Position numbers and translations under genes: made by a program. From an uncultured delta proteobacterium (lineage in GTDB: Bacteria > Desulfobacterota > Desulfuromonadia > Geobacterales > DSM-12255): a DNA stretch of 64,000 bases. The DNA lies in the NCBI GenBank assembly GCA_963787125.1, contig CAWBBV010000002.1, positions 1 to 64,000 of the forward strand. Reading direction: 5' to 3'. Position 1 is the stretch's first letter. Each line of letters begins with the position of its first letter. Under the pieces are notes generated by a model that was given only the letters and a program-made list of their open reading frames with translations, had not been told where the DNA came from and made no database searches. Shown here piece after piece: positions 1 through 47,860 of the stretch.

Positions 1-131
1 ACGTTATATATGACTGAGAGCTACAGATTTTTCCCCGGAAATTATAGATAAAATAATAAGTTACCAGTCTTGTAGTTCTATTGTCAGCCTGTTATTGAAT
101 AGCCATTTATTCAACATACCAGGAGGACAGA

Positions 132-1421
132 ATGGAAGCTGTAACGGATAGTCTGGCGTTGTTCAGACAGATGAAGGCATCAGTCAGGGGCTCGGAAAAA
201 CATCTGCTAGTCGGCATCGATGTTGCCAAGAACAAGCACCATGCTTTCTTTGGAACACCCAATGGCAGAACGCTACGCAAGAACATGATCTTTGACAACA
301 GCTTACAAGGATTCGAGAATCTGCGCAGTTTAGCCGGAGATCTCAAGAATCAACATGGCCTGGTCGAGGTTGTGTATGGACTTGAGCCTACAGCCTCCTA
401 CCACAAGCCCTTAGCCGAATATCTGCTGCGACAGAAGGAGCAGGTTGTCTATGTATCCAATGTGGCCGTGGCAAAGAATCGAGCGCTACTGGATGGCCGT
501 TGGGACAAGAACGACAAGAAGGATGCCGCCAATGTTGCCGATCTGGTGGGCCAGAGCCGCTGCCTCTTCTATGAGCTACCGCAAGAGAACCTGCGTGAAT
601 TACGCAGCCTGATTGGTTTCAGGATCAGGCTGAAGAAGGAAGAGCACGCACTGAAAATGCGGCTGAGAAATAATGTTCTTGCCCAGTTCTTTCCCGAATT
701 GGACCAGCTCTACATCAAAGCAGGGCAACCGGACGACCTGATTCTTTCAATTGCCGAACATTGTCTGGACCCGAGGGAAATTGCCGGGATGGAGTTCGAC
801 GCCTTCCTGAAGCTCATTACAAAACGCAAGATCAGGATAGAACAGGAAAGACGTCTGCGCGAGCTTTGGGAGACTGCCGGAGAGTCCGTTGGTTGCCTTG
901 TTCATGACGCCGCCAGATGGGAGGCCAAGAGTCTCGTCTGCCAGCTGAAGTCGATTCGTGAAACGGTCAAGGGTAATGAGCAGTTGATGGCAAAAGCAGC
1001 AAAGCAGTTTTCTGAATATGAGTGCCTTCTGTCTATTCCCGGATTCGGTCCGATTATTTCGGCCATGGTTCTTGCCGCCATCGGCAATCCTGTCCGGTTT
1101 CAGAATCAGGGACAGGTAGTGCGTCTGGCCGGACTGGACTTAAGTGCCGAGCGGAGCGGCAAGAACAGCAACAGTGCCAAGCCGGTGATCTCCAAGCAAG
1201 GGAAAGCGGCACTGCGTTACGCCCTGGTGCAAGCGGCAATGGTTGCCTCCACAGCGAATCCGGTTATCAGGACTTACTTTAGCAAATTAATCAGAGGTCG
1301 CGAGCTTGAGCGCGGCATCAACCTGAAGATGAAAGTCAAGCTGGCGGCAAAGCTTTTGGTTGTGGCCTGGACACTTATGAAGAAGAGAGAACCATTTAAT
1401 CCTTCCTGCTTCACGGGATAA
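132..1421 (+). CDS. IS110-family transposase/recombinase
   Basis: 429 aa; DEDD motifs GIDVAK, LEPT, KNDKKDA; C-terminal SIPGFG and AGL...SG motifs; AGGAGG RBS upstream. Confidence 0.95.
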   Translation: MEAVTDSLALFRQMKASVRGSEKHLLVGIDVAKNKHHAFFGTPNGRTLRKNMIFDNSLQGFENLRSLAGDLKNQHGLVEVVYGLEPTASYHKPLAEYLLRQKEQVVYVSNVAVAKNRALLDGRWDKNDKKDAANVADLVGQSRCLFYELPQENLRELRSLIGFRIRLKKEEHALKMRLRNNVLAQFFPELDQLYIKAGQPDDLILSIAEHCLDPREIAGMEFDAFLKLITKRKIRIEQERRLRELWETAGESVGCLVHDAARWEAKSLVCQLKSIRETVKGNEQLMAKAAKQFSEYECLLSIPGFGPIISAMVLAAIGNPVRFQNQGQVVRLAGLDLSAERSGKNSNSAKPVISKQGKAALRYALVQAAMVASTANPVIRTYFSKLIRGRELERGINLKMKVKLAAKLLVVAWTLMKKREPFNPSCFTG

Positions 1422-1737
1422 CCACCCTAGAGGCAGGCAGTAGGCGAGATAAGCCCGTTTAACAACGTAGAGGCAGCAATGACCTCGGGAGGGACAATAC
1501 CGGGCATCTCACTAAAATCTTGGAGCTTTGATAAGGAATGATAGACAACCCAGTTCCCGATGCGGGCGGGGGATGTCGGATACAAGTAACGATTAAGCTC
1601 AAGGTTTGCCGTAAGTGAGAGACTCGCCATTTCACCAAAGCAAGGGATAGCTGCGCCCGCAATCCGCAAGGATGACTAACTATTTGATTTTAAAAGAGCG
1701 ATATTTTCAGTTGACAGGTGGACTATAGAATGTCCCC
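1422..1737 (+). ncRNA. Putative bridge/seek RNA-encoding 3' non-coding region of IS110
   Basis: ~316-bp tail kept in both copies; a long 3' non-coding region is the IS1111-type arrangement; short matches to element flank and ends (see findings). RNA boundaries unknown. Confidence 0.55.
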
Positions 1738-2883
1738 CAAGGGTCCACCCAAAACCGGCGGTTACTCGATCCTTTTCATCCAGCCCGGAACCGTCGGCTA
1801 TTACAGCCTCGTCTTTGGCCAGACCCAGTTCATCAAAAAAATCATAAACCGCTTTCAGCCCTTTTTCCCTGGTCCCCGGTTCTCCTGATGCCTCTCGTCC
1901 CAACACCAGCAGCAGGTTGTCAGCCATAACATTCAGGCTGTTAACGTTTGTCTCGCGCAAGAGTTGGTTGAGGTCGGGGCTGGCCATCTCTGTCAGGATC
2001 AACGCACCTGGCGGCGTTATCCCAAGCTTTACGTCACCTTCCACCGTTACCGCTGCCTGCAGCAATTCAGTTTTCAATGAACCGGCTGCATACAGAGCCG
2101 GTTCATTGAGAGCAAACCTCTGTCTGTATGGTGCAGCATTTTGCGGAATATCGCCTGTGACCTTATAAGCGGTGTCGTCGATCCGCACTATCTGTATGGA
2201 GCTGCTTGACGCGGATATTGTCCTCGCCGTCAATGCCACTCTTACGGCGTCATTTGCCGGTTCGAACTTTACCAATGGAGTTTTGCCCGGTTCAGTGGGG
2301 GTGACGGTCACGCTTACCGTATGGAGATTCAGCCCCAGCGACCCGGCAGGGGCGTATCCCGGGCCGGTGCGGGTTCGCTCCAGCCCTTTCGGATCGAATC
2401 GTGTATCATCAGCAATCATGTCTCCGGTTACTTTGCTTATTCCCATCCGGGAAAGCCTCCGGGCGGCATTTTTGATATCTTCATCGGATAGCAGCGCGTT
2501 ACCTTTTCCCACAAGATAGATGTTACCTGCTATCGTGCCGTTTTTTTTGCCCCGTCGTGATAAATGGCGGTTCGCAGGTCGAATGCGCCATGCTTTGCCG
2601 CATGTTCTAATATTGCACCGCCAGTAAAAAGCTTCACCAGCGAACCGGGCATGAGACGCTCTTTCATTCCACTTCCGATGGCAAAAAGCTCTTTTCCGCT
2701 AGGGGCATCAAGTAAAACCAACGACCATTTGGCATCAACGGGGAGGAGTGATACTATCTTTTCCCTGAACAAGCTGCTCTCATTGGCATATATTTCGGCC
2801 GGAGATAACAGACAAAACATCCAGATTAGGAAAAAGACGCATGGCATCTTTGTATAATTTGTCAACAGTTGTAACCTAACCAC
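1738..2883 (-). pseudogene. dacB: D-alanyl-D-alanine carboxypeptidase/endopeptidase (PBP4, S13), frameshifted and 3'-truncated by IS110
   Basis: ORFs 2530-2883 (PGSLVK, SxxK) and 1676-2512 (NSLN, DGSGL) join if one base is added in the T8 run at 2541-2548; the KTG region is replaced by IS110. Confidence 0.85.
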
Positions 2884-2935
2884 TTTGGTTTACCATCGAT
2901 CCTAAAAAATGTATTATGAACCATAATGCACTGGC

Positions 2936-3133
2936 TTAACTTAATTTTTTTCTCGCAACAAAATAACAAATAACAACTAGTACTGGTCCGAGTATTTTTG
3001 AAGTGAAAAAATCAGTGAAAGATAGTAGCGTGAATATTTTTGTATTTGTGACATAATGAGTTGCTTTTATTATAATGTAGATAACTGACACTATTGCACA
3101 CAGTAAAAACCATGTTATAGCTTTCATATGCAT
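2936..3133 (-). CDS. Small two-TM membrane protein, putative immunity protein
   Basis: 65 aa, two hydrophobic segments, AT-rich, directly downstream of the RHS tip. Confidence 0.55.
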   Translation of the reverse strand: MHMKAITWFLLCAIVSVIYIIIKATHYVTNTKIFTLLSFTDFFTSKILGPVLVVICYFVARKKLS

Positions 3134-3137
3134 CTCC

Positions 3138-3607
3138 TCACATACAAGATTTAAGATAGCTGGCTAATGAATCTTTAACTGAACTTGTAACATCATACGA
3201 CCAATAGTATCCTTCAAGTGTAGTAGCTGGTGCAGATATCCTCATACCAGCTACAGATAAAAATACATTATATGCATTATATGCAGAGTTGGCTAAATTA
3301 TTATCTTTAGTAGCGATATATACAGCATTATATATTATATCTGGATTTGGTACCGATATCTTATTGTCTTGAATAAGTCCTATTATACCCTTAACAATGG
3401 CTGTAGAAAGTTTTTCAACCCCAATTAAAGTGGTTGGAACTCCTACTATTGCCCCTGGGAGGCCAAGAAGCGCTGTACTAGCAATGCCAGTACCAATTAC
3501 TACAAACGACATACCTCCTTCATCTAAAGCCTCGCTAAAAACATCTTCATTATATAAACCTAATTGATCCGTTGACATTATTGAGTTATTTTTTACATAC
3601 CTATAAA
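3138..3607 (-). pseudogene. Orphan RHS C-terminal toxin fragment
   Basis: YRYVKNNSIMSTDQLGL resembles the RHS core terminus (YxYxxNNPxxxxDPxGL), followed by ~140 AT-rich codons; cut upstream by IS1380 at 3608. Confidence 0.7.
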
Positions 3608-5280
3608 CCCGAATCCGCAAACCTTTGCCGGACACATTCATACAGGGTGATTTCGGAGGTATTTTTTTGAGTGAGACCCCATTGAGGGGAGTCGAAATCA
3701 CAGTTTTCAGCAAATTTCAAAAAGTGACGAGCTATTTTCCTCTTCAGGCGGTGTTTTTGCCGAATTAGGGACGAACTGCCACCTTGATCTTGTTTTTTGC
3801 TCTTTGACAATCTTGTTTTCAGTGTTTCCTTTAGCCGGTTACCGGCTGGAGCCTGCTGATTCTCGCCTGTATTCTGTCAGGGCGAAGCTTCTCCAGCCAC
3901 CAGCCGTTGACTTTTAGCAGGTTCTTGCGAGCATGATTGACCACGATTGCCGCACTACGCAGCAGATAATCCTGAATGGTCTTGATCCGCCGCCGCACTG
4001 GTGTTGCCTGACTGTCCGTCTCTATATCACCAGTTTCATCCCGCCACTGCTGGCCCAGCAAAATTAGCAGATTGTAGGCCATGGTTCCCAATGTAAGGAA
4101 TACTTCGTTGACACTGAAGGTCTGGGAGGGAAACCGTTCCAGGTCCAGATCGTGCTTAAGCTCTTTGTTTGCCTCCTCTGCCGCTCCACGTCCCCGATAG
4201 AGTTCGAATGCTCGCTGCGGGGTAACATCTTTGGGCAGGTTGGTGGCCAGTACGTGATAGCGGACATCATTGATCAGCAGTGGCTCCCCTTTTTCGTCTA
4301 CAGACTTGATCTGAACGCAGAAGACGAAGCGGCGTGGAATCTTCCAGCCGCTTGGGGTGTACTCGAATTCTCCGTAGAACTCACCACCGAAGTCCGTGAC
4401 TTTGAGGCTCATAACGTCTACATCGAGATTCTCGTTTACCACCCGGTCCAAAGCGCCACTGGTTCGGGCCTTGACCAGATAGTACGCCCCGGCATCTTCG
4501 CTGGCCTGGACAGTTTTGATGCTATAGAGCCCGGCATCGTAGCGAAAGAGGAGCTTGTTTCGATCTATCTTCTCAGGGAGCAGCTCTGCCGTTTCCCTGA
4601 TAAAATCGTCAATCCGTTCGACAGCTTTCTCTCGTCCTGGCAACAGCCAGTGATTGATGCAGAACCGTTCGCGACCTACAACAGCAAATACGGGGGTATA
4701 GCAGAGTTTGCCGTTGTATGTGGTTTGAGCACCTTCTCGTTTGGGCGCAAACTGCTCAAAAATACTTGGATCAATATCGCAAGGGATGTAACCTTCAGCT
4801 CCCGGTTCAGCAGTGATGGTTGCCTGGGAAACAATCTTTGCTCCGACCCGCTTGAGACCAGTGATCTGCTCTTTGCCATATTTTTCAAGATGCGTGGCAA
4901 CAGCCCGTTCTTTTGGGAGTTTGTTAAAGCCAAGCGACTTCTTGAGCAGTTTTTCTTCCCGAGCGAGCCAGGCAAGATCAGTGTAACTAGTCCGGCGTAG
5001 GGAAATGTTTAGTAACAGCGGGATCAGATGTTCCTCTTCCCGGAAGCCGTAGTCGATCTTCTTGACCCGCACCTCGCTTCTGATTGCTCGAATCAAATCG
5101 AGACGGCGTATGAGGGTGGTGAGCAACTCCAATCCTGCTACGGAAGTTAGTGTCTGTCGGGCTGCTACATACTGGAAACCAAGATTGTCTTTCACCATTC
5201 GGGTGAACTCCTTCACTGCAATTATGTGAAGGATTATAGCATGTTACGTTACATTAGCCCAATAGTTTTGCGGATTGGGG
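3608..5280 (-). mobile_element. IS1380-like insertion sequence, copy A
   Basis: 14-bp terminal inverted repeats CCCGAATCCGCAAA (3608) and TTTGCGGATTGGGG (ends 5280); flanks ATAAA/TTAAA are not a perfect target duplication. Confidence 0.88.
3831..5216 (-). CDS. IS1380-family DDE transposase
   Basis: 461 aa; CDID, RYDAG and YRGRGAAEEANKELK motifs; close paralogue of 39787-41172. Confidence 0.85.
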   Translation of the reverse strand: MKEFTRMVKDNLGFQYVAARQTLTSVAGLELLTTLIRRLDLIRAIRSEVRVKKIDYGFREEEHLIPLLLNISLRRTSYTDLAWLAREEKLLKKSLGFNKLPKERAVATHLEKYGKEQITGLKRVGAKIVSQATITAEPGAEGYIPCDIDPSIFEQFAPKREGAQTTYNGKLCYTPVFAVVGRERFCINHWLLPGREKAVERIDDFIRETAELLPEKIDRNKLLFRYDAGLYSIKTVQASEDAGAYYLVKARTSGALDRVVNENLDVDVMSLKVTDFGGEFYGEFEYTPSGWKIPRRFVFCVQIKSVDEKGEPLLINDVRYHVLATNLPKDVTPQRAFELYRGRGAAEEANKELKHDLDLERFPSQTFSVNEVFLTLGTMAYNLLILLGQQWRDETGDIETDSQATPVRRRIKTIQDYLLRSAAIVVNHARKNLLKVNGWWLEKLRPDRIQARISRLQPVTG

Positions 5281-6164
5281 TTAAATCAAACTGACTAAAT
5301 TTATCAACATCAGCAACTGCACCCAAAGCGAAAAATCGCGACTGTATAATTCTCGAAAATATTTCATATCTGTCTTTAGTGTCTTCAGGGTCTTTAGTAA
5401 ATCGCTTAACCCCGCTAAGCAGATCAAAAAACAGGTCTTCGCCTTGCACATATTTGTCTGCGTTACCACTGTAACTGTAAGGCGTATCAGGTTTCAAATT
5501 ATTACCAAGTCGCCAAATACGTAATGCATAATCATCAACATTAAAGTAGTTAAGGAATACCGTTTTATCAAAACTCTCTGCAAGGTATGGCTTATCTCCT
5601 GAGTTTGGATCTCCTGAAGCGTAATAACCGGATACATTTGGAATGGTAAAGGTACGATCCGTCCAGACTTTTTTGTTGTCATAAAAGTTTGTCGAGATTG
5701 CCCCTTGTGTAGCTATATAGCGCTGAACGATACCATTTCCCGACAGCTTGTTTATTGCTTCTCCCGCAACAACTGTTCCCATGCTATGGGCAAGAAGCCT
5801 GATCTGCCCTTTGTGTTTGGATAAACCCTGTTCCAGCAGATTCTTCAGAGCCTCAGCAGAATTCCAGGCGATGTTTTCACTCCGTGGATAGTTGGTAGAC
5901 CACATGAAATGGTAACCCAATATCCCTGTTTCTGCTTCAGTTAACGTCGGCCAGCTGAAGCTGCCGACACGGCCTGCGTACCACTGCCACCAGAGCCTTT
6001 TGAAGGTTGTTTCTGTCCACCGTTTTTTCTCATACTCCTTCATGTTCCAGCCATGAACATACAAGAGATATGCTTTATCATCGACAGGCTCATAGGCACC
6101 TTTCTGTATTTGATAAGGGGCAAGAGAAATATTTGGCGCTGTATTACTGCCTGGAGGGGCAGTA
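5281..6164 (-). pseudogene. Alpha/beta hydrolase domain fragment cut by IS elements at both ends
   Basis: VHGWN and AHSMG nucleophile motif; the start and end of ORF 5249-6184 are supplied by IS110 and IS1380 sequence. Confidence 0.75.
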
Positions 6165-7945
6165 GGGGACATTCTATAGTCCACCTGTCAACTGAAAATA
6201 TCGCTCTTTTAAAATCAAATAGTTAGTCATCCTTGCGGATTGCGGGCGCAGCTATCCCTTGCTTTGGTGAAATGGCGAGTCTCTCACTTACGGCAAACCT
6301 TGAGCTTAATCGTTACTTGTATCCGACATCCCCCGCCCGCATCGGGAACTGGGTTGTCTATCATTCCTTATCAAAGCTCCAAGATTTTAGTGAGATGCCC
6401 GGTATTGTCCCTCCCGAGGTCATTGCTGCCTCTACGTTGTTAAACGGGCTTATCTCGCCTACTGCCTGCCTCTAGGGTGGTTATCCCGTGAAGCAGGAAG
6501 GATTAAATGGTTCTCTCTTCTTCATAAGTGTCCAGGCCACAACCAAAAGCTTTGCCGCCAGCTTGACTTTCATCTTCAGGTTGATGCCGCGCTCAAGCTC
6601 GCGACCTCTGATTAATTTGCTAAAGTAAGTCCTGATAACCGGATTCGCTGTGGAGGCAACCATTGCCGCTTGCACCAGGGCGTAACGCAGTGCCGCTTTC
6701 CCCTGCTTGGAGATCACCGGCTTGGCACTGTTGCTGTTCTTGCCGCTCCGCTCGGCACTTAAGTCCAGTCCGGCCAGACGCACTACCTGTCCCTGATTCT
6801 GAAACCGGACAGGATTGCCGATGGCGGCAAGAACCATGGCCGAAATAATCGGACCGAATCCGGGAATAGACAGAAGGCACTCATATTCAGAAAACTGCTT
6901 TGCTGCTTTTGCCATCAACTGCTCATTACCCTTGACCGTTTCACGAACCGACTTCAGCTGGCAGACGAGACTCTTGGCCTCCCATCTGGCGGCGTCATGA
7001 ACAAGGCAACCAACGGACTCTCCGGCAGTCTCCCAAAGCTCGCGCAGACGTCTTTCCTGTTCTATCCTGATCTTGCGTTTTGTAATGAGCTTCAGGAAGG
7101 CGTCGAACTCCATCCCGGCAATTTCCCTCGGGTCCAGACAATGTTCGGCAATTGAAAGAATCAGGTCGTCCGGTTGCCCTGCTTTGATGTAGAGCTGGTC
7201 CAGTTCGGGAAAGAACTGGGCAAGAACATTATTTCTCAGCCGCATTTTCAGTGCGTGCTCTTCCTTCTTCAGCCTGATCCTGAAACCAATCAGGCTGCGT
7301 AATTCACGCAGGTTCTCTTGCGGTAGCTCATAGAAGAGGCAGCGGCTCTGGCCCACCAGATCGGCAACATTGGCGGCATCCTTCTTGTCGTTCTTGTCCC
7401 AACGGCCATCCAGTAGCGCTCGATTCTTTGCCACGGCCACATTGGATACATAGACAACCTGCTCCTTCTGTCGCAGCAGATATTCGGCTAAGGGCTTGTG
7501 GTAGGAGGCTGTAGGCTCAAGTCCATACACAACCTCGACCAGGCCATGTTGATTCTTGAGATCTCCGGCTAAACTGCGCAGATTCTCGAATCCTTGTAAG
7601 CTGTTGTCAAAGATCATGTTCTTGCGTAGCGTTCTGCCATTGGGTGTTCCAAAGAAAGCATGGTGCTTGTTCTTGGCAACATCGATGCCGACTAGCAGAT
7701 GTTTTTCCGAGCCCCTGACTGATGCCTTCATCTGTCTGAACAACGCCAGACTATCCGTTACAGCTTCCATTCTGTCCTCCTGGTATGTTGAATAAATGGC
7801 TATTCAATAACAGGCTGACAATAGAACTACAAGACTGGTAACTTATTATTTTATCTATAATTTCCGGGGAAAAATCTGTAGCTCTCAGTCATATATAACG
7901 TTGTTGATCAATCAACTAACTTGCCTCTAAGAGCCGGATTACCCC
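6165..7945 (-). mobile_element. IS110-family element, copy 2 (inverted; left end approximate)
   Basis: Reverse complement of copy 1 up to 7901 with a few SNPs (e.g. KSIRE vs KSVRE); outer boundary beyond 7901 cannot be fixed. Confidence 0.9.
6481..7770 (-). CDS. IS110-family transposase/recombinase
   Basis: 429 aa, one residue different from 132-1421. Confidence 0.95.
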   Translation of the reverse strand: MEAVTDSLALFRQMKASVRGSEKHLLVGIDVAKNKHHAFFGTPNGRTLRKNMIFDNSLQGFENLRSLAGDLKNQHGLVEVVYGLEPTASYHKPLAEYLLRQKEQVVYVSNVAVAKNRALLDGRWDKNDKKDAANVADLVGQSRCLFYELPQENLRELRSLIGFRIRLKKEEHALKMRLRNNVLAQFFPELDQLYIKAGQPDDLILSIAEHCLDPREIAGMEFDAFLKLITKRKIRIEQERRLRELWETAGESVGCLVHDAARWEAKSLVCQLKSVRETVKGNEQLMAKAAKQFSEYECLLSIPGFGPIISAMVLAAIGNPVRFQNQGQVVRLAGLDLSAERSGKNSNSAKPVISKQGKAALRYALVQAAMVASTANPVIRTYFSKLIRGRELERGINLKMKVKLAAKLLVVAWTLMKKREPFNPSCFTG

Positions 7946-8206
7946 TGACTATCTCCGCGCCCCGCTTTACCGCCACACTCACTCCAGATCGAGTCATGGT
8001 AAGCGCTCTGGCAACTGCAACTCCGCTAAATTAAGGCACCTTCAACGATGTTTGCTGGTTTGCTAACTACCCAGAACCGACTCTCTAACACCCTTATTTG
8101 CAGCACAAACACCTCGCCACGCCTTGGGGCAAGACATACTCACGATCTCTCTTAACCAACTCTTGCAGTATGTCGTTGTAGCACAACGGCCATCATTAAA
8201 GACCAC

Positions 8207-8283
8207 AAAACTTCGGGCGTCCGAAGTTTCGACTTAAGTAACTTATTTACAACAATTCACCCCTAAAAACAGGCCAAATATTT
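8207..8283. repeat. ~77-bp intergenic element with hairpin, copy 1
   Basis: Aligns without gaps to 18072-18148 (56/77 identities by hand count). Confidence 0.7.
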
Positions 8284-8379
8284 CGGCGATTTTGGACCGA
8301 ATTTCACCCGTTTTCTCATTATTTCAGCAATTTCATCTGGCCGATCTCTTTGCACCTGGTATGAAGGAGCGGTCCGGGG

Positions 8380-9786
8380 CTATTTCCGCAACATCTTGAG
8401 CCGCTTGTTCAACGCCGGGGGGGAGATCCCCAGCAGCCTTGCGGCAATGGCCTGAACGCCGTTTGCCCGGGAGATGGCTTCATCCACCAGCAGTTCGGCT
8501 GCTTCAGTAAAGGTGGGGAGCCGTTCGAAAGCGGTAAACGGGTTCTGATCGGGAGTAGGGAGCGGTTGGCCTTTGCGGGCCGGGCCGATTGCTTTAAGAA
8601 AGGTATCCATGGAGAGAATTCTCTCTTTATGGAGACTGACCGCATTATAAACCATGCCGCGCAGTTCCCGGACATTGCCGGGGAAATGATAGGTGGCAAG
8701 CAGCTGGGCAAGCTCTTTTGGCGGGGTGGGCTTTCGTTTGCCGCACGACCGGGCAGCTTCCCCGAGGAAATAGTCCAACAGCAGCGGCAGGTCACCGGTC
8801 CGCTCGCGCAAAGCCGGAATATGAACGTGGTGGGTGCGGAGCCGGTAATACAGGTCGCGGCGAAAGGTCCCGGCCGATTCCCTGGCAGTCAGGTCACAAT
8901 GGGTGGCGACGACGATGCGGGCTTTCAGCCGCTTGGGACGATCACTCCCCAGAGGGAAATACTCCCCCTCCTGGAGGAGCCGTAGCAGCTTGACCTGGGA
9001 GGCAATACTGAGGTCACCGATTTCGTCGAGGAAGAGGGTGCCGTCAACCGCCTGTTCGATCATGCCGGGTCGGGCCTGATCAGCGCCGGTATAGGCGCCG
9101 CGCACATGGCCGAAGAGGGTGTCGGCAAAAACCGTGTCGTCAAGGCCGGCAACATTAACGGCGATGAGCGGCCCGGAGCAGCCACTCAGCTTGTGGGCCG
9201 CCCGGGCAAAAAGCTCCTTGCCGGTACCGCTTTCGCCGGTGATCAACAGCGGCTGATTGCTGGGGGCGACCGCTTCGATATAGGTGAAAATGTCGTGCAT
9301 GCCGCGATCAGCGGTGACAATGTCGAGAAACGCTTCCGGGTGCTGCAGCTCCCGGGAGAGCATCCGGTTAGACATGGTGCGAAACTCATGTTGCAGCTCC
9401 AGGATACGGATTGCCCGCAGCACCCCTCCCACCAGACGGTCTTCTTCGTCAGTTTTGACAAAATAGTCGAAGGCACCAAGCTTCATGCAGCTGACCGCGG
9501 TCTCCAGCTGGTTCATGCCACTGACAATGATCGTCATTATTTCAGGATGAGTCTCGGCGATCTTTGCCAGGAGCGCTTCTCCTGACAGATGCGGCATGGT
9601 GAGATCCAGCAGCACCAGGCCGATATCACCCTGATCAAGCAGCGCCAGGGCTTCCCGGCTGTCCTGGCAGGTATGGAGGTTGTTGATACCGGCACAGCTT
9701 TTCAGGGTCAGGGAGAAGGACTTCAGCCAGGCAGGCTCGTCGTCAACCAGCAGGATACCGAAACCGGGATATGGAGTAGTCTTCAT
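8380..9786 (-). CDS. Sigma54-dependent response regulator (REC-AAA+-HTH, NtrC family)
   Basis: LLVDDE/LDLTMP receiver, GESGTGKE, GAYTGA, LFLDEIG, FPGNVREL. Confidence 0.93.
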   Translation of the reverse strand: MKTTPYPGFGILLVDDEPAWLKSFSLTLKSCAGINNLHTCQDSREALALLDQGDIGLVLLDLTMPHLSGEALLAKIAETHPEIMTIIVSGMNQLETAVSCMKLGAFDYFVKTDEEDRLVGGVLRAIRILELQHEFRTMSNRMLSRELQHPEAFLDIVTADRGMHDIFTYIEAVAPSNQPLLITGESGTGKELFARAAHKLSGCSGPLIAVNVAGLDDTVFADTLFGHVRGAYTGADQARPGMIEQAVDGTLFLDEIGDLSIASQVKLLRLLQEGEYFPLGSDRPKRLKARIVVATHCDLTARESAGTFRRDLYYRLRTHHVHIPALRERTGDLPLLLDYFLGEAARSCGKRKPTPPKELAQLLATYHFPGNVRELRGMVYNAVSLHKERILSMDTFLKAIGPARKGQPLPTPDQNPFTAFERLPTFTEAAELLVDEAISRANGVQAIAARLLGISPPALNKRLKMLRK

Positions 9787-47071: not shown

Positions 47072-47860
47072 CTACTTTTTTTTGAATGGCAACACCAGCA
47101 ATGCAACAAAGGAAAGTGCTGTTGTTGCCCTGAACTCCCTGAGTCCAATGGTCATTCCGGGATGACCATCCTGAGGCTGCGCCCTGTAGGTGCCAAAAAG
47201 CCGGTCCCAAACCGGGATATTAAACCCGAAATTACTGTTGGTTTCACGCACAATGACAGAATGATGCACCCGGTGCATGTCAGGAGTCACTATGACAAGG
47301 CGCAACCACCGATCAATCTGCGGCTGAATCCTTATGTTACCATGATTGAACTGGGCCGCAGCATTGAGAATTGTCTCAAAAATGATGACTGCAGTAGCAG
47401 GTGCTCCGCATATCGCAACAGCAGCCAGCTTTATCAACAGGGAGATGATGATTTCCAGCGGGTGGAAACGATTGCCGGTGGTAACATCGATATCAAGGTC
47501 AGTATGGTGAACCCGGTGCAGCCGCCAGAGGAGGGGCTGATAATGAAAAACCAGATGCTGCAGATAGATAATCAGATCGAGAAAAATCAGGGCGGCTGCA
47601 ACCTTCACCCAACCGGGAAGTGACATGTTGTTCAGAAGCCCCCAACCGTTCACGTGCGCCATAACGGCCATACTGGCCGGAAGTATCGGCACAAGGAATC
47701 TTGGAACTACGGCATTGATTGCCACCAGGGAGAGATTTATCCGCCAACGTCTGCCTTTGCTGTCGCATAACTGACGGCACGGCGCCAGCCGCTCCCAAAG
47801 CGCAACCAGCAGAAAAGTTCCGCAAAAAAATGAGAGTCTGATGCTTTCCTCCGCGTGCAT
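47072..47860 (-). CDS. Sterol desaturase/fatty acid hydroxylase family membrane protein
   Basis: His boxes HLVFH, HRVHH, FNH, HRVHH. Confidence 0.88.
   Translation of the reverse strand: MHAEESIRLSFFCGTFLLVALWERLAPCRQLCDSKGRRWRINLSLVAINAVVPRFLVPILPASMAVMAHVNGWGLLNNMSLPGWVKVAAALIFLDLIIYLQHLVFHYQPLLWRLHRVHHTDLDIDVTTGNRFHPLEIIISLLIKLAAVAICGAPATAVIIFETILNAAAQFNHGNIRIQPQIDRWLRLVIVTPDMHRVHHSVIVRETNSNFGFNIPVWDRLFGTYRAQPQDGHPGMTIGLREFRATTALSFVALLVLPFKKK

Follow-up and report, generated by a model that had tools for sequence, protein, structure and literature searches.

An IS110-family insertion sequence with a predicted two-loop bridge RNA encoded downstream of its recombinase gene

Background

The first bases of the window (the whole 64,000-nt stretch of DNA analysed here) are occupied by an insertion sequence (IS) with a long non-coding region 3′ of its recombinase gene, which raises the question whether this region encodes an RNA that guides the element to its target and, if so, which of its bases would do the guiding. 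A first-pass annotation had proposed such an RNA for the tail shared by two copies of the element, and had picked the short words GGCAGTAGG, TAGAGGCA and AACAACGT as its guide segments in an IS1111-type system; all seven pairs of coordinates on which the proposal was built hold the words assigned to them. In the descriptions given in PMC11187229 and PMC11208160, a long non-coding region downstream of the gene is noted as an exception, found in a minority of IS110-type elements. Our literature search returned no paper combining bridge RNA and Geobacter.

In this work we have delimited the element from its genomic copies, compared its non-coding region with those of related elements and matched the candidate guide segments to the DNA with which they would pair. 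Window 5-1733 is very probably an IS110-family IS whose 3′ end encodes a canonical two-loop bridge RNA, with its core at 1443-1628, guiding insertion.

Methods

The structure alignment comprised positions 1423-1640 of the window and 20 relatives from genome contigs, at 93-48% protein identity (21 sequences). The larger sample was formed by adding 80 metagenome loci; in 73 of the 101 elements the RNA could be recognised over 200 nt or more, and 28 were dropped, 22 being unmatched by the anchor pattern and 6 having too little sequence remaining. In an unbiased scan for guide segments each 7-column window was compared with all four junction halves in both senses. A single-column co-variation map of 18 sequences was too noisy, with shared ancestry dominant, and diagonal sums together with the larger sample were used instead. 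The left target guide was scored over eight variable positions per guide-flank pair. The expectation for chance matches was obtained from 5000 shuffles of three flanks, in which at least one match to the non-coding region was counted.

Results

The recombinase and the limits of the element

The open reading frame at 132..1421 (+) encodes an IS110-family DEDD/serine recombinase of 429 aa, as judged by Pfam, NCBIfam and a structural match to IS621. Both recombinase domains were recognized by Pfam (PF01548, E 1.1e-27; PF02371, E 2.3e-20), the NCBIfam model NF033542 "IS110 family RNA-guided transposase" gave 180.7 bits against a cut-off of 140, and structure comparison matched the protein to IS621 (8wt6, E 1.9e-17) and ISCro4 (E 4.3e-15). 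Residues D30, E85, D128, D131 and S342-G343 align with D11, E60, D102, D105 and S241-G242, the catalytic residues of IS621 as described in PMC11208158; among 11 relatives they are invariant, D131 nearly so. The protein cluster to which the recombinase belongs carries no element names.

A search of the genome found eight full copies of the IS in total. The two in the window, copy 1 (1-1737) and copy 2 (7901-6165), are identical throughout, and positions of copy 1 convert to those of copy 2 as p -> 7902-p; on the minus strand, copy 2 accordingly occupies 6169..7897, with the recombinase gene at 7770-6481, the predicted bridge RNA core at 6459-6274 and the left target guide at 6444-6434. Comparison of the flanks of the eight copies with one another and with empty sites gives the element a length of 1729 bp. 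GT is present at both junctions and the junctions are identical in all eight copies; in copy 1 the left GT lies at 3..4 (+) and the right GT, with which the IS terminates, at 1732..1733 (+). The flanks of all eight read ...(A/G)CAAC-GT on the left and CCCC on the right, copy 1 being without a left flank because the contig begins at the start of the window, of which bases 1-2 are the final two of the left target half. Uninterrupted sites in the genome read ...AACAAC-GT-CCCC.... From the copy flanks and the empty sites, GT is therefore the core common to the target and the joined ends. At copy 2 the left target half and core, GATTGATCAACAACGT with adjoining bases, are found at 7898..7912 (minus).

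These boundaries alter several details of the first-pass annotation. The tail of about 316 bp that it described is indeed alike (identical) in both copies, but its last four bases, CCCC (1734..1737, +), lie outside the IS and open the right half of the target, so that the element stops at 1733. "ACGT" and "CCCC", which had been taken for the ends of the IS, both proved to be target bases when compared with copy flanks and empty sites. With CCCC assigned to the target, the reservation that the right flank of copy 1 fails to match disappears; this flank reads GT-CCCC-CAAGGG, and its conserved part is as in all other copies. The genomic copies and empty sites, whose collection had been recommended as a check, define the target, AACAAC-GT-CCCC, and its core.

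The left end of the IS (5..131, +), delimited by copy comparison, opens with TATATA, and the left ends of relatives start with TATAT or a near variant. The non-coding DNA measures 312 nt downstream of the recombinase gene vs 127 nt upstream. No circle junction was seen in assembled contigs from four DNA runs; one contig of a related element has its right and left ends in the order RE-38 nt-LE, i.e. tandem copies.

Some neighbours of the copies deserve mention. Copy 1 adjoins an open reading frame at 1676-2512 (-), matching the profile of S13 D-Ala-D-Ala carboxypeptidases only at 88-344 of 444 positions, and copy 2 adjoins a DUF900 hydrolase-like one at 5249-6184 (-). The starts of both run into the right ends of the IS, and they may have been truncated or fused by the insertion. 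Elsewhere, at C4:195382-195416, there is a lone 31-nt remnant of an IS right end, TTGACA and core included, which sits between two near-identical copies of a right flank, directly after a REP-like site.

A conserved two-loop fold

RNAalifold, applied to the 21 aligned sequences, returned 46 pairs, 25 of which show compensatory changes. In a cleaned structure of 42 pairs, 94.4% of 874 cells are paired and 25 of the pairs have changed on both sides; when partners were slid by 1-3 columns as a control, 34-49% were paired. None of 500 shuffles reached the observed value on any of five measures. The predicted bridge RNA core, 1443..1628 (+), is defined by RNAalifold and pair counts and closed by the stem 1443-1446 / 1625-1628. 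It would contain a target-binding loop at 1454..1504 (+), with outer stem 1454-1457 / 1501-1504 and inner hairpin 1470-1486, and a donor-binding loop at 1521..1601 (+), with outer stem 1521-1528 / 1595-1601 and inner hairpin 1544-1577. Compensatory changes were found in 8 of the 12 pairs of the helix enclosing the donor loop (alignment columns 101-114 with 184-196). This structure of about 185 nt is kept in 73 related elements among the 101 examined.

The fold of the window RNA as a single sequence is unexceptional (z = -1.63; 12 of 200 shuffles fold as well), and a search of window 1-9000 against Rfam 15 at E <= 1 gave only a chance lncRNA match elsewhere and none in the RNA region.

Predicted guide segments and their DNA partners

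The left target guide, TTTAACAACGT at 1458..1468 (+), reads in the same sense as the left flank followed by the core GT and would pair with the bottom strand. Its diagonal came out on top of the unbiased scan by excess over cross-pairings. Where the left junction is known (18 elements), the guide matches its own flank at 90 of 144 positions, vs 67 +/- 5 when guides and flanks are permuted (3 of 100000 permutations reach this value), and in 55 distinct guide-flank pairs at 274 of 440 vs 209 +/- 9 (z = 7.2; 0 of 100000), although these permutation values overstate independence because the relatives share ancestry. In 10 of the 55 pairs the match is weak, extending to just 1-3 of the 8 variable positions. 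A co-variation of guide and target, which the first-pass annotation had named as a check of its proposal, is hence found for TTTAACAACGT against the left flank. The word AACAACGT was rightly seen there as a guide, but it matches the left half of the target and not the left end of the IS: it equals left flank plus core in four of the six copies with a full left flank and agrees at 7 of 8 positions in the other two, and it co-varies with the flank in relatives.

The right target guide has the core GGGAC at 1491..1495 (+), which is complementary to the GT core and the adjoining CCC of the right flank. GGGAC is found with GTCCC in 53 of 56 elements and faces GT-TCC, with a G-T wobble, in two; in the relative L062 the guide AGAAC stands opposite GT-TCT, a natural retargeting. 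The core of this guide is 5 nt only, the next position being mostly mismatched (A opposite C in 21 of 55). An extended right target guide was considered and rejected, as the base at 1490 does not vary with that at flank position +4. L062, a metagenome contig, has the right flank GT-TCTTA and a left guide ending in CAT instead of CGT; its target, and perhaps its core as well, may differ.

In the donor loop the left guide GGAATG (1535..1540, +) has the sense of AGAATG at the right end of the IS (1727-1732). Position 1537 and right-end position -5 are concordant in 53 of 56 elements (A/A 27, G/G 25, T/T 1), L027 and L033 being among the three exceptions, and A1541 is mismatched with T, the second base of the core. 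The right donor guide, GTAAC (1586..1590, +), is complementary to the GT core and the TAT that opens the left end, with one G-T wobble; GTAAC or ATAAC accompanies GTTAT in 55 of 59 elements, and compensatory variants are found in L028 (GCAAC/GTTGT) and L047 (GTAAC/GTTAC). Co-variation with the DNA partner across relatives is seen for each of the four guides.

Two further bases follow the right guides, one each. G1591 is complementary to the target base preceding the core in 71 of 73 elements (68 G/C, 2 A/T, 1 T/A), the exceptions L084 and L123 having a misaligned or degenerate donor loop, and A1496 is matched by the T preceding the donor core in 54 of 56. By analogy with the handshake guides described for IS621 in PMC11208158, both are candidate handshake bases.

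Conserved fold and co-variation together bear out the central proposal of the first-pass annotation, namely that the 3′ non-coding region would carry a structured guide RNA, some segments of which match the target and others the donor.

Alternative readings of the 3′ region

The region lies within the end of the element, where protein-binding sites are to be expected, and it might consist of DNA sites for recombinase binding or end recognition, or form plain 3′ structure or a terminator of the mRNA, with no guide role. We regard this as improbable: compensatory changes in 25 of 42 pairs point to selection on a folded single strand, the loop bases track flanks and ends in the strand-specific pattern of a bridge RNA, and no terminator-like site was found in 1422-1737.

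The IS1111-type seekRNA of the first-pass annotation is less probable still. It places GGCAGTAGG, a top-strand match, 5′ of AACAACGT, a bottom-strand match, and treats TAGAGGCA as the guide for the donor or left end. The words do occur where they were reported, and the order of a top-strand match 5′ of a bottom-strand match is that given for IS1111-type seekRNAs in PMC11187229. However, GGCAGTAGG (1436..1444, +) lies 5′ of the RNA core, overlapping its first two bases, and cannot be upheld as a guide: its complement is found in full (9/9) at copy 2, one of the eight insertion sites, and at the other seven copies it matches at 4-6 of 9 positions, two of which are the common CC. Close relatives whose flanks are unrelated share the stretch GAAGCAGGCAGTnGG, of which the word is part; in distant relatives the RNA core is retained and A+T-rich sequence stands in place of the word. 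GGCAGTAGG also has no core overlap with the other match, which the published model requires. The conserved GGGAC 3′ of the left guide fits all sites. A GGCAGTA-like consensus, whose absence from other insertion sites had been stated in advance as evidence against GGCAGTAGG, is absent from them. TAGAGGCA lies outside the guide loops and is found in the flank of one copy only. Its occurrence at 1468-1475 arises where the left guide ends and passes into the hairpin stem, the one at 1428-1435 is specific to the present element, and that at 7922-7929 belongs to the flank of a single insertion site; it is not a guide either. The warning, given with the original proposal, that such words arise by chance was well placed, as 17.6% of shuffles contain a 9-mer match and 55% an 8-mer match. 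The six 8-mer matches have overlapping words and reduce to three independent ones, of which two come from one hairpin in the flank of copy 2 (TACTGCC...GGCAGTA), by which the apparent matches were doubled.

A small protein encoded on the opposite strand (open frame 1427-1669 (-), 80 aa) can practically be dismissed: all 21 aligned relatives have an open frame of 46-73 codons on the minus strand, but there is no excess of changes at third codon positions (0.144 / 0.090 / 0.150 in close and 0.348 / 0.360 / 0.393 in distant relatives) and the translated frames switch between relatives.

Target sites at the ends of Y1 transposase genes

Four paralogous genes encoding proteins of 320-327 aa have target sites 15-50 nt beyond their 3′ ends, and one of these sites holds an IS copy. 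The paralogues (C23:102033-103013, C3:47335-48291, C16:125950-126885 and C4:124790-125749; 44-56% identity) combine a Y1 (IS200-like) transposase domain, recognized by PF01797, with a DnaA-C-like helix-turn-helix. The target motif or the IS is found 3′ of all four and an inverted copy 5′ of three of them. The RAYT model NF047646 gives 63.9 bits against a cut-off of 80, and the Y1 gene has several paralogues, unlike typical single-copy RAYTs. Just upstream of the copy 2 target, at 7908..7997 (minus), a 29-aa frame is similar to the 327-aa Y1 protein at its C-terminus and is taken for the remnant of a Y1 (RAYT-like) transposase gene; the C3 paralogue has the same arrangement as at copy 2, but its site is empty. 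Palindromes of about 60 nt left of three IS copies are two target sites placed head to head, and AACAACGTCC sites are few, 17 in the genome of 4.2 Mb. The targets appear to be REP-like ends of Y1 (RAYT-like) transposase genes. In this the element would resemble some IS1111-family members, which target repeats, REP in the case of ISPa11.

The Y1 paralogues are bracketed by inverted GGGGACGTTGTT-type repeats, an arrangement that is RAYT-like but multi-copy. On C11, near 311840-311925, AACAACGT is followed by TAATTCTCCC, with neither IS nor CCCC; the site follows immediately on the 3′ side of a partial Y1 gene at the contig end, and TAATTCTCCC may mark the terminus of some other inserted element. 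At many target sites the sequence from GT-CCCC onward is tandemly duplicated in units of 10-27 nt (C12:36385-36495, where a 19-nt unit is present seven times; C16:125228-125280; C16:131336-131375; C3 near 47270-47300; C1 near 2200-2240). These duplications could be scars of repeated recombination, or of Y1 transposase activity.

The palindromes, together with two intI genes scoring above the TIGR02249 cut-off, one of them 3.6-4.7 kb from two target sites, suggested integron attC as the target. This is unsupported because the sites flank Y1 transposase genes, and the integron integrases are regarded as unrelated to targeting. Their genes are at C4:161732-162667 and C23:106715-107650; the C23 open reading frame is unusually long (470 aa), and six repeats of about 20 nt, of the GTTTCTATATCTATAAAC type, are clustered upstream of it.

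Predicted expression

TTGACA at 1711..1716 (+) was read from the sequence as the -35 half of a predicted circle-junction promoter. Across the join it is separated from TATATA of the left end by 17 nt (1717-1733), and TATATA would be the -10 half once the element is circular; the circle should therefore carry a promoter into the recombinase gene and then the RNA. TTGAC[AG] is found at the right end in 19 of 21 elements (the window and 18 of 20 relatives), and in 18 of these 19 a recognisable right-end junction follows it. No sigma-70-like site was detected upstream of 1443 in the present element, and the RNA, being located downstream of the gene, is probably transcribed together with the recombinase mRNA. 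The distant relative L028 has a TTTAGA-16-TATAAT site that ends 3 nt before the RNA core; nothing comparable was seen in L025.

Discussion

On the observed copies, boundaries, target, conserved structure and guide-DNA co-variation we build a model in which we infer production of the RNA, its binding by the protein and the chemistry of strand exchange. In the target loop, TTTAACAACGT would recognize the left flank and core by pairing with the bottom strand, and GGGAC would pair with GT-CCC. In the donor loop the joined ends of the excised circle would be read by GGAATG, corresponding to the right end, and GTAAC, corresponding to core plus left end. The 429-aa DEDD/serine recombinase together with the RNA would carry out strand exchange at GT, inserting the circle into ...AACAAC-GT-CCCC... 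sites, here presumably the REP-like ends of Y1 (RAYT-like) genes, and the joining of the ends would create TTGACA-17 nt-TATATA upstream of the recombinase gene.

Our current understanding of how IS110 elements work is unchanged by these results, which add a well-resolved member to a known group and no new mechanism: a further natural bridge recombinase whose four predicted guides, GT core, donor and target could be mapped from sequence alone. As an IS110-type element whose predicted bridge RNA is encoded 3′ of the gene, it is a clear case. Guides vary naturally among its more than 70 relatives, and it is a ready candidate for ortholog screens. A relative named in ISfinder, with a bridge RNA predicted at its 3′ end, may already be catalogued. 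We suggest only tentatively, and think it rather doubtful, that the clade represents an IS110-type lineage, marked by a long recombinase, a lack of subterminal repeats and a loop order like that of IS621, with the entire bridge-RNA module in the 3′ UTR of the recombinase, a position reached independently of the IS1111 lineage. If true, both guide and enzyme would be under a promoter existing only in the excised circle, and the GT-CCCC duplications and the 31-nt remnant would be scars of repeated recombinase action.

The IS1111-family elements ISEc11, ISPa11, ISKpn4 and ISPst6, as presented in PMC11187229, resemble the present element in encoding their seekRNA downstream of the transposase gene. 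The IS1111-type assignment made in the first-pass annotation has nevertheless to be abandoned. The proteins of that family are given as 330-350 aa (429 aa here) and its subterminal inverted repeats as 7-17 bp, whereas here none of at least 7 nt was found, exact inverted matches of the first 60 with the last 80 nt reaching 6 nt at most, in an internal position. The top-strand match is 5′ of the bottom-strand match in the IS1111 guides described in PMC11187229, the reverse of the order here. By guide order and protein size the element is IS110-type, not IS1111-type.

ISPpu9 and ISPpu10 of Pseudomonas putida, in the account of PMC12288879, are likewise IS110-family elements; they are located in REP sequences, and the sites of the present element are REP-like. 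In ISPpu9 a gene for a small RNA follows the transposase gene, and ISPpu10 forms a hybrid junction promoter; both features are predicted here. Ssr9 of ISPpu9 is reported there as dispensable for transposition and as a separate mobile module, whereas the downstream RNA predicted here has all four guide segments. ISEc21, an IS110-family element treated in PMC11187229, has a bottom-strand match 5′ of the top-strand match, as in the present case, and a specific insertion site; it differs in that its non-coding region is upstream of the transposase gene and it inserts into conserved sequence within IS3-family transposase genes.

Comparison with IS621 of E. coli, as far as it is described in PMC11208160 and PMC11208158 and in structure 8wt6, reveals both differences and likenesses. 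The RNA of IS621 is encoded in the left end, whereas here it is 3′ of the gene, in the right end; the core is CT there and GT here; and the protein has 326 aa (PMC11208158) as compared with 429 aa, the match between the two being distant (E 1.9e-17). In contrast to IS621, the right target guide is short here (5 nt) and the left donor guide mismatches the second base of the core. The systems are alike in having a DEDD and serine recombinase, two internal loops of which the target loop comes first, left guides in the sense of the top strand and right guides complementary to it, a core contained within the pairings, and handshake-like bases 3′ of the right guides (PMC11208158). IS621 also has REP-type targets, to which the targets here appear similar, and a sigma-70-like promoter formed from the joined ends, as is predicted here.
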